Origin: Patescibacteria group bacterium
Lineage (GTDB): Bacteria > Patescibacteriota > Patescibacteriia > 2-01-FULL-39-33
Reading direction: 5' to 3'
Length of the DNA stretch: 13,264 nt
Assembly (NCBI GenBank): GCA_041662745.1
Contig: JBAZRV010000010.1
Coordinates: forward strand, 1-13,264
This document shows, in pieces, positions 172 through 10,438 of this stretch. Below the pieces are notes generated by a model. The model made no database searches and was not told the origin of the DNA. It saw nothing but the letters and a program-made list of their open reading frames with translations. Positions within the stretch are counted from its first letter, which is position 1. Each line of letters starts with the position of its first letter. The translations under genes and the position numbers were made by a program.

Positions 172-187
172 CGGAGAGAGGGGGATT
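172..187 (-). repeat. Displaced duplicate of the tRNA-Ser 3' end (T-loop AAT through the discriminator base); direct repeat of 392-407
   Basis: cggagagagggggatt at 172-187 is identical to 392-407, which is the 3' 16 nt of the intact tRNA-Ser. Confidence 0.9.
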
Positions 188-336
188 TACTCGCTCACTC
201 GGCGCCAAAAAGCGCCTCATTCACTTGTCCAAGGTAGCCGCCAAACGCTCTTGATGGTCGCGTTTGTCGTCGCTCAATTATTCGGCTCGGCTTCTGCCTC
301 GCCTCATATCTCGCTCGCTACCTGTTCGAATCCGCC
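188..336 (-). ncRNA. Unclassified structured RNA-like element, copy A
   Basis: Homologous to 10017-10160. The first 27 nt (cgctcactcggcgccaaaaagcgcctc) are identical, then one mismatch, then 12 more identical nt. Helices (plus-strand coordinates): 233-238/317-322, 242-248/260-266, 284-291/296-303 and 201-205/212-216. Three of these covary with copy B. Read on the minus strand, one hairpin is GGC-GA-GGC-AGAA-GCC-GA-GCC, that is tandem G.A pairs plus a tetraloop. It lies between tRNA-Ser and the terminator at 134-161, so read-through from the tRNA could express it. Confidence 0.55.
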
Positions 337-391
337 ATTTTCAAACGGTATTTTTTTATGACGGTAAAAAACCGTCTTAAAAAAATATTTT

Positions 392-478
392 CGGAGAGAG
401 GGGGATTCGAACCCCCGAGGGCTTTGACACCCTACTCGCTTTCCAAGCGAGCGCACTCGACCACTATGCGATCTCTCC
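392..478 (-). tRNA. tRNA-Ser, anticodon GGA, class II with long variable arm, no encoded CCA
   Basis: The minus-strand sequence folds by hand into a cloverleaf. Acceptor stem GGAGAGA/TCTCTCC. D stem GCAT/GTGC with GG in the loop. Anticodon stem CTCGC/GCGAG with loop TTGGAAA. Variable arm AGGG..CCCT. T arm GGGGG-TTCGAAT-CCCCC. Discriminator G. Confidence 0.95.
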
Positions 479-480
479 AG

Positions 481-1811: not shown

Positions 1812-3272
1812 CTATTTTATCCCTGGTTTCTGTTTATGCCAATCCGTGGCCAATTGGTATTGATGGCCGACGCGCAAAACAGTCTTCTCAGCAAAGCGCT
1901 TGCCTAATAACTGGATGCCCACGGGCAGATTGTCAGCCAGACCGGCGGGGATAGTCAAACCGCAAATGCCGGCCAACGAGGCGGGAATAGTAAAAACGTC
2001 GGCTAAATACATCTTCAGCGGATCATTGATATTCTCCCCCAACTTGAAAGCGGGGGTCGGCGCAACCGGGGTCAAAATAACATCAACCTGCTCAAACGCC
2101 TGATCAAAATCCTCACACACTAAAGTGCGGATTTGCATGGCCTTCTTGTAGTAAGCATCATAATAGCCGGCCGATAAAGCATAGGTGCCGATCATAATGC
2201 GACGCTTGACTTCGGAACCGAAACCCTCGGCGCGAGTGTTAATGTAGATATCCAACAGATCTCCGGATTGCTTGGACAGGCCATAACGAATGCCGTCGTA
2301 GCGCGCCATATTGGAAGATACCTCCGACGGGCAGATAATGTAATAGGCGGCCACGGCCAAATCCGTATGGGGCAAGGAAATATCAATAACTTCAGCGCCC
2401 AACTCCTCCAATTTTTTTGCGGCTTCAAGAACGCGATCGCGTACGCCCACATCCATACCCTCAACAAAATACTCTTTGGGCAACCCGATTTTCAATCCCT
2501 TGATATTCTTTTTGATTTCTTCCGGATAATTATCCACGCTGATATTGGGCGTGGTAGAATCTTTTTCATCGCGTCCGGCCAAGTATTTCATGATCAGCGC
2601 GATATCTTCAACGTTTTTACCAAACGGGCCAATAGTATCCAAAGATGAAGTCATGGCCATCGCGCCATAGCGGGAAACACGGCCGTAAGTCACCTTCAAG
2701 CCGGACACGCCACAAAACGAAGCGGGTTCGCGGATAGAGCCGCCGGTATCCGAGCCGAGCGCATAAAAACACATATCGGCAGAAACAGCCGCAGCCGAAC
2801 CGCCCGATGAACCGCCGGGTACGCGATTCAAATCCCAGGGATTATGGGTCGGAAAAAAACCGGAATTTTCGGTTGATCCGCCCATGGCGAACTCATCCAA
2901 ATTGGTTTTGCCCAAGATCACCGCGCCCTCATCGCGCAACTTTTTGACGGCAGTGGCATCAAACGGCGGAATATAATTCTCTAAAATTTTTGAAGCGGCC
3001 GTACTGCGCAATCCCTTAGTGCAAAATATATCCTTGATAGCTACGGGTATGCCGGCTAAGGGAGAAATACTGTCCTCCGTCTGCAATAATTTATCAGCGG
3101 CCTCGGCCTGCGCCAACGCCTCCTCTTCATTTAAAGTCAAAAAAGCTTTAATTTTTTCGTCTTGGTTTTTGATTCGCTCAAAACAAGCCGCGGTCAATTC
3201 CCGGCTGGTGAATTTCTTTTCTCTCAGGCCGGCAAAGGCTTCAAGCAGTGTTAGTTTATTTAAATCAGGCAT
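1812..3272 (-). CDS. gatA: Glutamyl-tRNA(Gln)/aspartyl-tRNA(Asn) amidotransferase subunit A
   Basis: Amidase signature GGSSGGSAAAV and full-length GatA-like sequence. The ORF track starts at a TTG at 3326. I prefer the ATG at 3272 (MPDLNKLTLLEA...), which matches the usual GatA N-terminus and avoids overlap with gatC. Confidence 0.9.
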   Translation of the reverse strand: MPDLNKLTLLEAFAGLREKKFTSRELTAACFERIKNQDEKIKAFLTLNEEEALAQAEAADKLLQTEDSISPLAGIPVAIKDIFCTKGLRSTAASKILENYIPPFDATAVKKLRDEGAVILGKTNLDEFAMGGSTENSGFFPTHNPWDLNRVPGGSSGGSAAAVSADMCFYALGSDTGGSIREPASFCGVSGLKVTYGRVSRYGAMAMTSSLDTIGPFGKNVEDIALIMKYLAGRDEKDSTTPNISVDNYPEEIKKNIKGLKIGLPKEYFVEGMDVGVRDRVLEAAKKLEELGAEVIDISLPHTDLAVAAYYIICPSEVSSNMARYDGIRYGLSKQSGDLLDIYINTRAEGFGSEVKRRIMIGTYALSAGYYDAYYKKAMQIRTLVCEDFDQAFEQVDVILTPVAPTPAFKLGENINDPLKMYLADVFTIPASLAGICGLTIPAGLADNLPVGIQLLGKRFAEKTVLRVGHQYQLATDWHKQKPGIK

Positions 3273-6016: not shown

Positions 6017-7081
6017 TCAGTTGACTGGTGGCAAGAAAAAACCAATTTCCTCCGCCGCCCGCCAAGTTTCATCCAGTCTTTGCAAGTCAACCGGACCGAC
6101 TTCATGGAATTGCCACTCCTTGAAGGAGTGGATGAAGGTGCCGGCGTGACAGGCATAAGTGATGCCCGGCTTCAGCCTCATCGTAAAGTGGATATCAACT
6201 TTCTGAGGATCGTAGGCCAACAATCCGCCTTCAAAATGCTTGATATCCGGGCGCGCCCGAAAATCACGCTTTTTGAGAGGATTGGGCACGGCGAAATTCA
6301 GCACCACGGCATCATCCGGAATGTGTTTGTATAAATCTCTGCGGGAAGGAATGGCCTTACCCGTGATCCACAACTGGCATGACGACCCCCAGCTCAAGGA
6401 GTTTGTCCACTCCAATTTATCGGAACAGTCGCCCGCTTCCTTAGCGATGCTTTGAAACCGTTCCAAATCTTGAGTGTACATCAACACCCTGACTCCGCGC
6501 CGAGCCAAATCAATGGCCACGGCTCGACCGATCTTTGAAGTTGATCCGGTCAGGAAAACCGGTCCCTTGATTTGATACTTCTCAATCAGGGCCAGGGCCT
6601 GCCGAATAACCGTTGCCGCGGTCAAGGTATCGCCATGGACTATCCAAGCCCATAAACGGTCGGATAACTCCTTGACGATCCAAGATCCTCCGTCAGTTAT
6701 CCTAATGTCTTTGATCAGAGCACCTAAGCCGATGACCTTGACTCCCTTTCTCTGAAGTTCAAGAACGGCGTCCAGGATTCGTTTCTTGATGCCGTTTCGG
6801 CGCGTCGGCAAAAAAAAGTGCCAACCGAAATTGCGCAACAGAACGGTCCGGCAGTCAATTTCTTCTCCGGCCGGCGTCTTAAACACAAATCTGTCAACCG
6901 TATCAAACGGCTTTTTTCCGACAAGATACTTCACCGACATCACCCAGCACATCGGGTAGAGCCAAAAAAACCAATAACGCCATTCCGGATGCCGGTGGAG
7001 GCAAGAGAATGGCCAAAGCAGCCAGTTCCAGCTTTCCACCCAGTGAGCCAAAAACGCCATTTTCCGTTCATTCGTTTCCAT
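6017..7081 (-). CDS. NAD(P)-binding Rossmann oxidoreductase resembling the long-chain acyl-ACP reductase family, with a Trp-rich hydrophobic N-terminal extension
   Basis: 354 aa. GGAG Shine-Dalgarno sits 9 nt upstream of the ATG. Dinucleotide-binding motif TGSTSKIGRAV. The C-terminal block ITYACHAGTFIHSFKEW...VDLQRLDETWRAAEEIGF parallels, from my memory of it, the cyanobacterial acyl-ACP reductase block containing the catalytic Cys (FACFAEAMLLEFEGW...). The family assignment rests on recollection and is not a search result. Confidence 0.5.
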   Translation of the reverse strand: METNERKMAFLAHWVESWNWLLWPFSCLHRHPEWRYWFFWLYPMCWVMSVKYLVGKKPFDTVDRFVFKTPAGEEIDCRTVLLRNFGWHFFLPTRRNGIKKRILDAVLELQRKGVKVIGLGALIKDIRITDGGSWIVKELSDRLWAWIVHGDTLTAATVIRQALALIEKYQIKGPVFLTGSTSKIGRAVAIDLARRGVRVLMYTQDLERFQSIAKEAGDCSDKLEWTNSLSWGSSCQLWITGKAIPSRRDLYKHIPDDAVVLNFAVPNPLKKRDFRARPDIKHFEGGLLAYDPQKVDIHFTMRLKPGITYACHAGTFIHSFKEWQFHEVGPVDLQRLDETWRAAEEIGFFLPPVN

Positions 7082-7155: not shown

Positions 7156-7198
7156 ATAATATCATATTAGCGTTATTTTGTCAATAGAATTATCCACA
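7156..7198 (-). promoter_or_regulatory. Promoter cassette copy 1: TGTGGATAA (DnaA-box-like), TTGACA, 17 nt spacer, TATTAT
   Basis: Minus strand reads GTGGATAATTctaTTGACAAAATAacgCTaATATGATATTAT. -35 at 7179-7184, -10 at 7156-7161, ttatccaca at 7190-7198. Near-identical to 8905-8947. Confidence 0.6.
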
Positions 7199-7651: not shown

Positions 7652-8821
7652 TTAGAACCTCCAGCTTCCGGAAAGGCCGAAAGTCAAGATCTCGGTTGAC
7701 ATTTTTCTTCCGGAAACCTCATTGCTTCCCCAGCCGTAACTAGTGGAAGCAATCAAGCTGAAATGCTTAGTCGGCGAATACTTGATCCGTCCACCGAGAG
7801 CCCAGCCATCAACGTCAGGCGTCATATAGTCAGCCGTCTTGGTAATGGCCTTGCTCATGTAAGTCACCCCGCCGCCGGCCGTTAACTTGTCGCTGAACTT
7901 ATGGCTGGCGCCCAAATGAATGGCGATATTGTCCTGCCAATTCATGTTGACCGCTTTGGTAATCGGCAATTTATCAAAATTCACCATGGCTCGGTTCAAA
8001 CTATTCCGACTATATCCGAAATAAGTTACTTGACCGACCAATAGCCAATCTTCCCGTGGCTGATAACCGACGGAAAAATCAACTTTTTCGGGGAACTTGA
8101 ATTTCAAGTCAATGCCATCGCGTATTTTTAGCCCCAATAAACCGGCGGTGCAACGGCCTTCAAGTCTTACCGTAACCGGCGAAAGATAATTGACGCCGAA
8201 CGCCAGTTTATCCGTCGCTTGATACATAGCGCCTGCTTGCCAGCCATAACCAAAACCCAAAGCCTTCAGGTTAACCCGAACCGGCAAAGGTATGCGACTT
8301 ACATCAAACGGTCCGACCCAAGTCATCATGCCCATGGCAATAACCGGGCCAGCGCCGATTGACAAGCGATCAGTCAGCTGCTTGGAAATAAATGGCTTGA
8401 TATAGGTTCCGGACACAAGCGTCTGAGAATCCATGCCGTACCAAATATTCTTGAAGCTGGCGCCCAGGCCGTAGTTGGTGTGGATGTCCACGCCCCAGAC
8501 GGTTGACTCGTCAATCCTCTCGGCATAAGAAACCGCCGGCAGGACATGAGCCATATTCTTGGAAGTAAACTTTTTGCCGCGCTTATCCTCATAAGTGAAT
8601 TTGGGGACCATGACTTCGGTCCCCACCTCAACCAAGCGCTTGCCATTCAATTGCAACTTACTCCCCAGATTATGGGGAAACCACATTCCCGACGGATCGG
8701 ATCCCAGTCCGATATCGGTCGTGCCGGTCGCCGCCACGCGACTCAAGCCGCCAGCAAACGCCGACTGATCAAGACACAAAAAAATAGCAAAGACAACCGC
8801 GATAATAACGCTTTTCTTCAT
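7652..8821 (-). CDS. Outer-membrane beta-barrel protein, FadL/OmpP1/TodX-like (hydrophobic-compound transporter family)
   Basis: I chose the start at ATG 8821 (MKKSVIIAVVFAIFLCLDQSAFA, a signal peptide), with AGGAGA 6 nt upstream. The sequence shows an alternating beta-strand pattern rich in G/Y/S/T and a terminal ...LSGSWRF aromatic signature typical of OMPs. The FadL-family call comes from overall length and pattern and is not a search result. Confidence 0.55.
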   Translation of the reverse strand: MKKSVIIAVVFAIFLCLDQSAFAGGLSRVAATGTTDIGLGSDPSGMWFPHNLGSKLQLNGKRLVEVGTEVMVPKFTYEDKRGKKFTSKNMAHVLPAVSYAERIDESTVWGVDIHTNYGLGASFKNIWYGMDSQTLVSGTYIKPFISKQLTDRLSIGAGPVIAMGMMTWVGPFDVSRIPLPVRVNLKALGFGYGWQAGAMYQATDKLAFGVNYLSPVTVRLEGRCTAGLLGLKIRDGIDLKFKFPEKVDFSVGYQPREDWLLVGQVTYFGYSRNSLNRAMVNFDKLPITKAVNMNWQDNIAIHLGASHKFSDKLTAGGGVTYMSKAITKTADYMTPDVDGWALGGRIKYSPTKHFSLIASTSYGWGSNEVSGRKMSTEILTFGLSGSWRF

Positions 8822-8904
8822 CTCAGTTCTCCTCATTTTTATCCCCAAGGGGATGATCTTATGTACTAAAGGCATTCAAACAACATAGTTTATGCCAATA
8901 TATA

Positions 8905-8947
8905 ATTATATCATATCAGTGATATTTTGTCAAGACAATTATCCACA
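8905..8947 (-). promoter_or_regulatory. Promoter cassette copy 2: TGTGGATAA (DnaA-box-like), TTGACA, 17 nt spacer, TATAAT
   Basis: Minus strand reads GTGGATAATTgtcTTGACAAAATAtcaCTgATATGATATAAT. -35 at 8928-8933, -10 at 8905-8910, ttatccaca at 8939-8947. Confidence 0.6.
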
Positions 8948-9978: not shown

Positions 9979-10004
9979 AATTGGTTTTAATATTTACTAG
10001 CACG
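9979..10004. repeat. 26-nt direct repeat flanking element B (copy 1)
   Basis: aattggttttaatatttactagcacg is identical to 10191-10216. Confidence 0.9.
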
Positions 10005-10016
10005 GGGTGAAGGAAT

Positions 10017-10160
10017 TACGCGCTCACTCGGCGCCAAAAAGCGCCTCGTTCACTTGTCCAGGGTCAGCGCCAATCATTATCAATGATTGGCGACGCTCGA
10101 CTGCTCTTTTCGCCTTCCGGCTCAAAGCTTGTCTCGCTTCTGACCTGTTCGATTCTCGCC
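10017..10160 (-). ncRNA. Unclassified structured RNA-like element, copy B
   Basis: Homolog of 188-336. Helices (plus-strand coordinates): 10062-10067/10140-10145, 10068-10076/10084-10092, 10106-10114/10119-10127 and 10030-10034/10041-10045. Read on the minus strand, one hairpin is CTTT-GA-GCC-GGAA-GGC-GA-AAAG, that is tandem G.A pairs plus a GNRA tetraloop. Confidence 0.55.
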
Positions 10161-10163
10161 CCG

Positions 10164-10192
10164 ATATTAAATATTTAAAACCAACTTGATAA
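10164..10192 (-). promoter_or_regulatory. Candidate promoter for element B
   Basis: Minus strand reads TTATCA (10187-10192), 17 nt spacer, TAATAT (10164-10169). This places a start about 7 nt downstream, at the beginning of the conserved GAATCGAACAGG block. The -35 is weak. Confidence 0.35.
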
Positions 10193-10216
10193 TTGGTTTT
10201 AATATTTACTAGCACG
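10191..10216. repeat. 26-nt direct repeat flanking element B (copy 2)
   Basis: Identical to 9979-10004. A degenerate third copy (aattggtttt..ttact) lies at 10266-10280. Confidence 0.9.
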
Positions 10217-10438
10217 AATTGCTGGATTAGAATGGAACCCGTTTATCCGTTTAATCCGTAATGTTAATTGGTTTTTTACTGACTTTGATTTTGACAGATT
10301 CTACGCCACAATCTAATAAAGAATTACTGCTTTTTTAGCCAAGAGTATACTTATGTGATTCTTACCAGACATGACCAGTTTAAGGCGATTAAAAGACACT
10401 AGATGAACAAGATGACCTCTTAATGGTTTAGATTGCCC

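Follow-up and report, generated by a model that had tools for sequence, protein, structure and literature searches.

A strand-specific folded module at tRNA T-loop junctions of Patescibacteria and other uncultivated bacteria, possibly an attachment site of tRNA-targeting integrative elements

The stretch of DNA analyzed here (referred to as the window; 13,264 nt of contig JBAZRV010000010.1 of a Patescibacteria group bacterium, assembly GCA_041662745.1) carries a tRNA-Ser(GGA) gene and two diverged copies of a folded module, named A and B. Both copies lie on the minus strand, at positions 188-336 and 10017-10160, and align end to end, as described in the first-pass annotation of this DNA. They follow a general pattern, i.e., a core of about 135 nt (CGAAC...GAGCGCG) with a target-derived flank on each side. 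The features of the two units are given below in minus-strand order.

391..479, minus strand: tRNA-Ser(GGA) gene, proposed target of the copy A unit (ARAGORN; Rfam tRNA, 58.5 bits)
392-407, minus strand: repeat X1, the last 16 nt of tRNA-Ser (AATCCCCCTCTCTCCG)
337..391, minus strand: spacer between the tRNA and copy A, with a hairpin GACGGT/ACCGTC at 360-376
329..336, minus strand: X' of copy A (GGCGGATT), the partner of X2 in the closing stem
188..328, minus strand: core of copy A, CGAAC ... GAGCGAGTA, composed of a long-range helix, a GA/GA-GNRA hairpin, a variable hairpin and a 3' GGCGC/GCGCC hairpin (fold and covariation; covariance-model match 186-337, 137 bits, E 1e-38)
172..187, minus strand: X2 of copy A, identical over 16 nt and in direct orientation to tRNA-Ser from nt 58 to the 3' end (392-407)
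10217..10245, minus strand: degenerate T-arm-like segment at the left junction of the copy B unit (ACGGGTTCCATTCTAATCCAGCAATT)
10191..10216, minus strand: upstream copy of a 26-nt repeat (5 nt from the 3' end of tRNA-Trp, then 21 nt of the native flank downstream of it)
10152..10190, minus strand: turn plus S', a diverged inverted copy of the tRNA-Trp 3' end and flank, ending in X' (CGGGGCGAGAAT), which pairs with X2
10017..10151, minus strand: core of copy B, CGAAC ... GAGCGCGTA (covariance-model match 10015-10160, 130.1 bits; fold z = -4.1)
10000-10016, minus strand: X2 of copy B (ATTCCTTCACCCCGTGC), equal to tRNA-Trp from nt 58 to its end
9979..10016, minus strand: X2 of copy B plus native flank (native flank 9979-9999; alignments to locus L084)

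The remaining genes of the window are ordinary, with products including a thioredoxin-like protein, GatA, GatC, a 7TM-GAF histidine kinase, a CER1-like/SDR protein, a FadL-type porin and a DUF5684 secreted protein, and its GC content is 43.7%. Window proteins left without annotation had no match in NCBIfam or PHROGs. ARAGORN found no tmRNA and no further tRNA in the window.

The helices read by eye in the first-pass annotation were checked base by base and all of them are present where it had placed them, among them the long-range helix (GGTAGC/GCTACC at 233-238/317-322 in copy A; GGTCAG/CTGACC at 10062-10067/10140-10145 in copy B) and, in copy A, the hairpin CAAACGC/GCGTTTG (242-248/260-266). 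Single-sequence MFE folds of the minus strand of both copies (z = -2.3 for A and -4.1 for B) reproduce the proposed topology, a three-way junction plus a 3' hairpin, with the symmetric GA/GA internal loops between helices and the GNRA cap; the plus strand of copy A folds somewhat more weakly (z = -2.0). The assignment to the minus strand, which had been made from these loops, is settled by the frequent G.U pairs of the homologues described below (U.G at one pair in 38 of 51 sequences and G.U at another in 33 of 51), because a conserved G.U would be A.C on the other strand. Two earlier statements required revision. The copies had been termed an unclassified structured RNA: the module is indeed structured, strand-specific, covarying and outside any Rfam family, but nothing found here points to an independent small RNA gene, and the promoter scan revealed no sigma-70-like promoter upstream of copy A or B. 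In addition, several blocks described as conserved and single-stranded are paired or target-derived. The 5' block (ATTCGAAC or AATCGAAC) and the 3' GTAA plus flank form a closing stem, which copies the T-stem of the local tRNA, and the sequence (G)ATTCGAAC of the 5' block corresponds to a tRNA T-loop in reverse complement, a relationship that had been overlooked.

No Rfam 15 family corresponds to the copies, tmRNA, 6S, RNase P, SRP, the riboswitches, HEARO and ROOL included: in the window only tRNA-Ser reaches the gathering threshold, and at E<10 nothing credible was found over either copy or over four related loci. Homologues were retrieved by two pattern scans, (i) one exact-pattern scan of GTDB representative genomes, which yielded five loci (three in MAGs labelled Patescibacteria and two labelled "uncultured Gammaproteobacteria"), and (ii) one degenerate-pattern scan of metagenome contigs, which yielded 76 stretches; the pattern was placed in the 3' hairpin region, and so these numbers underestimate the breadth of the family and conservation in that region is inflated. 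Matches to (GAGCGA)n repeats in L020, L024 and L083 and the match in L036 were excluded as chance pattern matches. Twenty-three full elements were aligned with MAFFT with no structure fitted, and the RNAalifold consensus of this alignment contains 32 pairs, 23 of them with compensatory changes. Helices P2-P4 fall outside the search pattern, and their covariation is therefore independent of retrieval. A covariance model (R1) built from the 23-sequence alignment, the kind of search that the first-pass annotation had recommended, gave about 70 matches above 40 bits. Taken together, the covariance model and pattern scans provided 55 matches of at least 75 bits in 44 distinct metagenome or MAG loci (here numbered with the prefix L).

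In an alignment of 51 sequences, 90.9% of the paired cells are compatible with pairing, compared with 72.3% after shuffling and 28-39% with slid partners, and 28 of the 32 pairs vary on both sides; the observed measures were reached by none of 500 shuffles. This alignment was fitted to the model, and the independent MAFFT alignment agrees with it. The covariation, which in a comparison of two copies might have been due to chance, is thus upheld in both the 23- and the 51-sequence alignments. Coding on the opposite strand was considered, since ORFs 125-361 and 10007-10189 of the plus strand overlap the copies, but it was rejected: the gaps in the loops are of 1, 2, 4 and 7 nt, and the substitutions are pairwise compensatory. 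The copies are members of one uncatalogued family of folded modules of about 135 nt. Scans of IMG/VR gave chance or weak matches alone, and BLAST searches against INPHARED phages and PLSDB plasmids gave no match, in each case at the sensitivities used. Full-text literature searches turned up no account of such an element, and the parts of the TIGR-Tas paper retrieved by term look-ups contain none either.

Copy A lies 54 nt downstream of the tRNA-Ser(GGA) gene, on the same strand, and its flanks are derived from this gene. The 5' end of the copy, GGCGGATTCGAAC, is the reverse complement of the tRNA-Ser T-loop plus T-stem; GGCGGATT taken with CGAAC is an inverted copy of the T-loop and the 3' strand of the T-stem (10 contiguous nt). 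[quoted passage not shown] A terminator-like hairpin followed by a T-run can be read by eye at about 130-166, past X2 of copy A; the terminator scan reported none after copy A or copy B.

Copy B is bracketed by a perfect direct repeat of 26 nt (100% identity; 9979-10004 and 10191-10216), which the first-pass annotation had missed. The identical 26 nt are found directly after tRNA-Trp in L084, a 22.5-kb contig reached via a window protein. Upstream of copy B, the segment 10152-10190 forms with the repeat 10191-10216 a hairpin (AAAACCAA/TTGGTTTT), and what looks like a terminator ahead of this copy consists of the flank copy AAAACCAA, a short turn and the diverged inverted copy TTGGTTTT...GGGGCGAGAAT. 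The native tRNA-Trp flank of L084 has no such hairpin. From this comparison follows the general architecture S - turn - S' - core - S, in which S is the target-derived segment and S' its inverted copy.

The same arrangement recurs across the family. Among 45 copies with enough upstream sequence, 24 are located 44-63 nt downstream of a tRNA gene of the same strand, 6 come after another copy and 15 have no upstream tRNA; a tRNA gene on the opposite strand was found within 300 nt of none of them. The linked tRNAs represent 12 anticodon types (Glu-TTC, Glu-CTC, Trp, Asp, Gly-GCC, Gly-TCC, Gln, Lys, three Ser types and Val). In nearly all tRNA-linked copies a 3' direct repeat of 16-22 nt begins exactly at tRNA nt 58, past GTTCG, and the 5' end shows 10-15 contiguous nt of inverted identity to the T-arm of the same tRNA. 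The 5' block changes with the ending of the T-loop, being AATCGAAC with ATT, ATTCGAAC with AAT and GCTCGAAC with AGC. In L026 and L028 the downstream repeat is missing, and the 5' copy still fits the upstream tRNA. The inserts have the order [tRNA nt 58 to 3' end, with or without flank] - [hairpin/turn or cargo] - [inverted T-loop/T-stem] - [core], and the inserted DNA directly abuts the native tRNA 3' end, leaving the tRNA intact. Flanking direct repeats of the kind expected of tRNA islands are present; they are exact and extend 14-30 nt from nt 58, and the upstream tRNAs are called intact. A tRNA primer-binding site was ruled out as the source of the flank, which has tRNA sense and contains no CCA complement.

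Three forms of the tRNA-Trp locus were distinguished. In L084, whose flanks are 100% identical to the window (blastn, 300 nt), copy A is present and copy B is absent, and the site corresponding to copy B reads rpmG - intact tRNA-Trp - flank - a gene of 305 aa. The window and L084 are identical from ATTCCTTCACCCCGTGCTAGTAAATATT... rightwards and unrelated leftwards, with the breakpoint TTCG|ATT in the T-loop; X2 of copy B plus its flank is therefore the native 3' end of tRNA-Trp. Locus L086, from the same sample as L084, contains the 282-aa and 524-aa genes of the window, the 26-nt repeat, the turn, the inverted copy, the core and ATTCCTTCACCCCG, past which it continues into different, unrelated DNA (GGGTCTGTAATTAAG...). 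The window thus equals the left part of L086 joined to the right part of L084. Identity common to L084, L086 and the window is limited to 14 nt (tRNA nt 58-71), a shared block too short for a k-mer mis-join; moreover, the window's joint recurs in L080, a relative at 92% identity. As judged from sequence comparison, this is the pattern that would be expected of an attB site, an element-borne site and a hybrid joint, respectively. The reciprocal joint (tRNA-Trp followed by GGGTCTG...) and a circular form of L086 were not observed, and L086 could represent a second chromosomal locus instead of an excised (attP) form.

Further signs of mobility come from exchanges of flanks and from arrays. L082, at tRNA-Asp, and L030, at a Gly-type end, have cores that are 98% identical and flanks exchanged on both sides to fit the respective target; these two loci come from the same metagenome, and gene conversion between resident copies could account for the pair instead of fresh retargeting. 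Cores 9-13% apart were found at Asp/Gly, Glu/Val-like, Ser/Trp and Gly/Gln. Tandem arrays are present in L041, L019, L014, L021, L029, L043 and L055. In L041 (rpmG - tRNA-Trp - unit - unit), the tRNA-end copy farthest from the gene is the most decayed, as would result from the entry of each new unit at the functional tRNA. In L064 a whole unit is perfectly duplicated in tandem and the second core is internally deleted. Units lacking a tRNA in front retain, in those inspected, a short tRNA-end remnant, the hairpin and the inverted copy. Minimal units are about 220 bp long, and other units carry cargo: L009, L048, L054 and L029 consist of repeating [segment-hairpin-X'-core-X]-cargo units, and the genes between units, in either orientation, encode PMT_2 and GT2 glycosyltransferases, radical SAM/SPASM proteins, polyprenyl synthetase, CYTH and NYN proteins. 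Some copies are incomplete, keeping the 3' end without the 5' part (two in L004, two in L014 and one in L049) or showing internal deletions and 3' truncations (L051, L064 and L012).

These observations bear on whether the module is mobile at all. It might instead be a chromosomal structured sRNA or a tRNA-trailer RNA, for example a mimic or decoy of the acceptor/T-arm, duplicated together with tRNA 3' ends and non-mobile. Strong purifying selection on the structure is compatible with a cellular RNA, and so is a closing stem that equals the tRNA T-stem and carries a tail corresponding to the acceptor 3' strand. Terminator-like sequences (hairpin plus T-run) can be made out by eye behind X2 of copy A, in L001, L004 and L005 behind the tRNA or X2, and behind the distal copy of L041, and high-scoring cores persist without X2 in L026 and L028. 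Such an RNA leaves unexplained the presence and absence of copies among near-identical strains, the joints to unrelated DNA, the decayed arrays and the cargo units, and it is accompanied by neither a promoter nor a conserved partner gene. We therefore regard it as very unlikely.

The surroundings of the copies were searched for a gene that might act on them. Clustering of 463 ORFs located within 4 kb of the copies revealed nothing conserved, the top cluster being a spurious antisense ORF over the element itself, and in the Pfam analysis of 147 neighboring ORFs no family occurred in more than three of them. Among the 25 families listed of the 178 found in neighboring ORFs there is no integrase and no enrichment of transposases or reverse transcriptases near the copies; no integrase was found at the array loci. 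Genes for DEDD recombinases, TnpB, IscB or Cas-like proteins were detected neither in the window nor in the neighboring ORFs of the 44 loci, among the Pfam families listed. Several known types of element were rejected on structural grounds: (i) casposon-like or ordinary transposons, given that there are no terminal inverted repeats, (ii) the template and variable repeats of a DGR, as the differences between copies are not limited to adenines, and (iii) the homing crRNA/tracrRNA of a CAST, as no transposon-end repeats and no Cas or Tns genes were seen. The core is presumably also unlike the ShCAST sgRNA.

The order S - turn - S' (inverted) - core - S, with a precise 3' junction and a duplicated length ranging from 14 to more than 38 nt, would also be produced by a SINE-like non-autonomous retroelement, whose RNA, perhaps co-transcribed with the tRNA, is copied into the nicked T-loop through target-primed reverse transcription; the inverted copy would then stem from cDNA snap-back and the direct repeat from a staggered second nick. 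The several copies with an intact 3' end and no 5' part, the strand-specific structure and the lack of terminal inverted repeats point in the same direction. Reverse transcriptase genes are, by contrast, neither found nearby nor enriched, and any bias towards 5' truncation is weak given that internal and 3' deletions occur too. Furthermore, the intact tRNA-Trp of L084 together with the L086 form resembles conservative, reversible recombination. Retrotransposition is not reversible, and we consider this origin highly improbable.

What is firmly established is a conserved, strand-specific folded module situated exactly at a T-loop recombination junction, with inverted and direct copies of the target on its flanks. 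To explain it, we lean, with slightly better than even confidence, towards reading the core as the end module, or attachment site, of integrative elements directed at the tRNA T-loop, acting as a folded single strand with a putative recombinase supplied in trans. In the mechanism proposed, the target point would be the T-loop, between nt 57 and 58, and the module would act as the folded single strand of the tRNA-sense strand. In a single-stranded or cruciform form, X'-X pairing would restore the target duplex on the right side of nt 57|58, so that the closing stem would reproduce the duplex beside the crossover point; to the left there would be a mismatched bulge and 2-3 bp (TCG/CGA). The multi-helix core may be recognized by, or set the target for, a putative recombinase encoded elsewhere or on a helper element. 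One strand exchange between a folded circle [X - hairpin/cargo - X' - core] and the tRNA gene would give L - X1 - ... - X' - core - X2 - R, which is exactly the unit order observed. Recombination in trans is an assumption of this reading.

The GNRA loops, the tandem sheared G.A pairs and the conserved U.G wobble weigh against this reading, since they point more to a functional RNA than to a site on DNA, and classical att arms are not known to show RNA-like covariation. Alternatively, the module may be a guide-type RNA, analogous to bridge or omega RNA, for a putative RNA-guided recombinase or nuclease: X' would pair with nt 53-65 of the tRNA gene on its sense strand, and the 3' flank X, being just the DNA adjacent to the element, with the opposite strand, the scaffold serving to bind the protein. 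Besides the motifs just named and the highly conserved junctions, it is favored by the behavior of both terminal segments, which follow the adjacent tRNA over 12 types while the scaffold stays constant. Such a target-tracking signal revealed the programmable loops of IS110 bridge RNAs. The 3' segment is, like those of TnpB omega RNAs, derived from the flank and about 16 nt long, and the core adjoins the crossover point. On the other hand, X' and X are mutually complementary and the closing stem would tie both of them up, the core resembles no known guide scaffold by Rfam or sequence comparison, and beside the copies there is no IS110, TnpB, IscB, Cas-like or other conserved gene and no detected promoter. 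A guide RNA in this sense appears rather unlikely.

A more inclusive formulation is possible, though we would assign it clearly less weight than the folded attachment site as such: the module would be either the scaffold of a novel type of target-specifying RNA or a folded single-stranded att site, through which a recombinase encoded elsewhere would place DNA cassettes in the T-loop of essentially any tRNA gene. Its details, held just as tentatively, are that the terminal segments may read both target strands and that insertion would rebuild the tRNA, in an integron-like or bridge-RNA-like cassette system that uses tRNA genes as its anchor in Patescibacteria and other uncultivated bacteria.

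We rate the element as a probable tRNA-targeting integrative element with a structure-defined site, kin in principle to the folded sites of attC and CTX and to tRNA islands. Integron attC is likewise a strand-specific folded recombination site with covarying stems, and integron cassettes likewise have one structured site per cassette, in promoter-poor arrays of accessory genes (as in L009, L048, L054 and L029) that contain no recombinase; in both systems new units appear to enter beside an anchor site. In integrons this anchor is attI next to intI, whereas here it is the tRNA T-loop and no IntI was found. The attC site is also a simple R''-L''/L'-R' hairpin (RYYYAAC ... GTTRRRY), in contrast to the 135-nt three-way junction with an extra hairpin and conserved loops described here, and the element differs further from integrons in that its cargo has mixed orientation and its flanks copy the target. 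With CTXphi attP(+) and other IMEX, which use the host XerCD, the element shares inverted segments in one strand, which are predicted to fold into a stem imitating the duplex target with a mismatch beside the cleavage point, and the lack of an integrase of its own; the order X - ... - X' - module beside a native X fits single-strand exchange. CTXphi, however, targets dif, while the element targets tRNA genes and carries no filamentous-phage genes. CTX integration is irreversible, and the tRNA-Trp states of the element look reversible.

The islands and prophages of tyrosine integrases that use tRNA genes (T-loop sublocation) similarly regenerate the tRNA and show flanking direct repeats, and the three tRNA-Trp forms seen here may be counterparts of their attB, attP and hybrid joints. 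The element is distinguished from them by (i) the absence of an adjacent integrase gene, (ii) minimal units of only about 220 bp, (iii) an inverted target copy that is always present, (iv) a covarying structured module in place of ordinary arm-type sites, and (v) the use of the same core at 12 tRNA species. The element resembles the bridge (seek) RNA of IS110/IS1111 and the omega RNA of TnpB in having a structured non-coding module of about 150 nt at its very end beside the crossover, with terminal segments that follow the target sequence, as guides might, and, as in omega guides, a flank-derived 3' segment. The guides of the IS110 bridge RNA, however, lie in internal loops, whereas the candidate guide segments of the element are terminal, complement each other and may be no more than copies of the target DNA. 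IS110 and IS605 insert without the long direct and inverted target duplications that the element has. In omega RNA the guide is the flanking DNA beside the TAM; the 16-nt 3' segment of the element is preceded in the target by TTCG, and this target is duplicated. Neither bridge nor omega RNA has sequence or Rfam similarity to the element.

If the folded attachment-site reading is correct, the family would be a widespread, uncatalogued module that marks the insertion of DNA into tRNA genes without destroying them, apparently with no recombinase needed in cis, and it would explain why genome-reduced uncultivated bacteria have islands and small cassette arrays beside tRNA genes. The combination, at 12 tRNA species, of a constant scaffold and ends that match the target is a trait of interest in programmable recombination systems, and the covariance model obtained here can be used directly for annotating such elements and for seeking a co-occurring enzyme.

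A second conserved segment of approximately 75 nt (S2; ...TCTCAATTTCYCCAATAATCYCGTYAAAATTTTGAGAAATTTCAGAC...AGGACTAC) was distinguished at the tRNA-Glu-type units, at the distal end of the cargo segments, in the following loci from metagenome or MAG contigs:

L009 2581-2658, S2
L048 1851-1928, 4586-4657 and 7718-7786, S2 in three copies
L054 114-191 and 1105-1179, S2 in two copies
L043 140-217, S2
L051 2369-2443, S2
L005 1719-1796, S2
L002 3409-3483, S2
L001 3330-3407, S2

S2 terminates with the final 7-8 nt of tRNA-Glu, and the segment is placed as if the acceptor end were targeted by a second kind of insertion. Its reverse complement resembles the final ~25 codons of a protein (VVLKSEISQNFDGIIGEIEKWAEIL, followed by a stop), with variation of the synonymous type.

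Two tRNA-Gly(GCC) loci, L026 (8771-8921) and L028 (1852-2002), are syntenic, sharing 84% identity in their upstream regions. Their cores belong to different sub-lineages, the nearest relative being an Asp copy for L026 and a Glu copy for L028. Neither locus has the tRNA-end repeat downstream; nonetheless, the 5' inverted copy in both still matches tRNA-Gly. At two other, mutually unrelated loci (one Ser-type, one Trp-type), the downstream copy of the tRNA end carries one and the same small palindrome, inserted where its T-stem part meets its acceptor part:

L031 about 3120-3150, minus strand, GCCTGCC GGCAGGC-like palindrome
L055 about 940-970, GCCTGCC GGCAGGC-like palindrome

The window itself contains a 43-nt direct repeat (7156-7198 and 8905-8947; 86% identity; ATAATATCATAT.AG.G.TATTTTGTCAA.A.AATTATCCACA), whose copies lie closely upstream of two minus-strand genes, encoding a CER1-like/SDR protein (6017-7081) and a FadL/Toluene_X porin (7652-8875), and which may be an operator or promoter element common to both. 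Independent assemblies end at nearly identical points:

Window 13264, end
L086 (copy B element joined to another flank) 1-15
L087, end
L089, start

The break points are the left edge of the region with the 282-aa gene, the hairpin turn that precedes copy B, and a site lying 96 nt upstream of the 305-aa gene; their coincidence hints at additional repeats or strain heterogeneity around this island.

Three loci (L020, L024 and L083) proved unrelated to the element, their long (GAGCGA)n-type microsatellite tracts fitting the search pattern by chance. Stacked between the native end of the tRNA and a full copy are shorter divergent core relatives, or 5'-truncated copies that have lost all but the 3' hairpin module:

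L056 5205-5310, short or truncated core relatives
L004 5828-6012, short or truncated core relatives
L014 1040-1270, short or truncated core relatives

These stacks suggest the existence of more subfamilies or abortive insertions.
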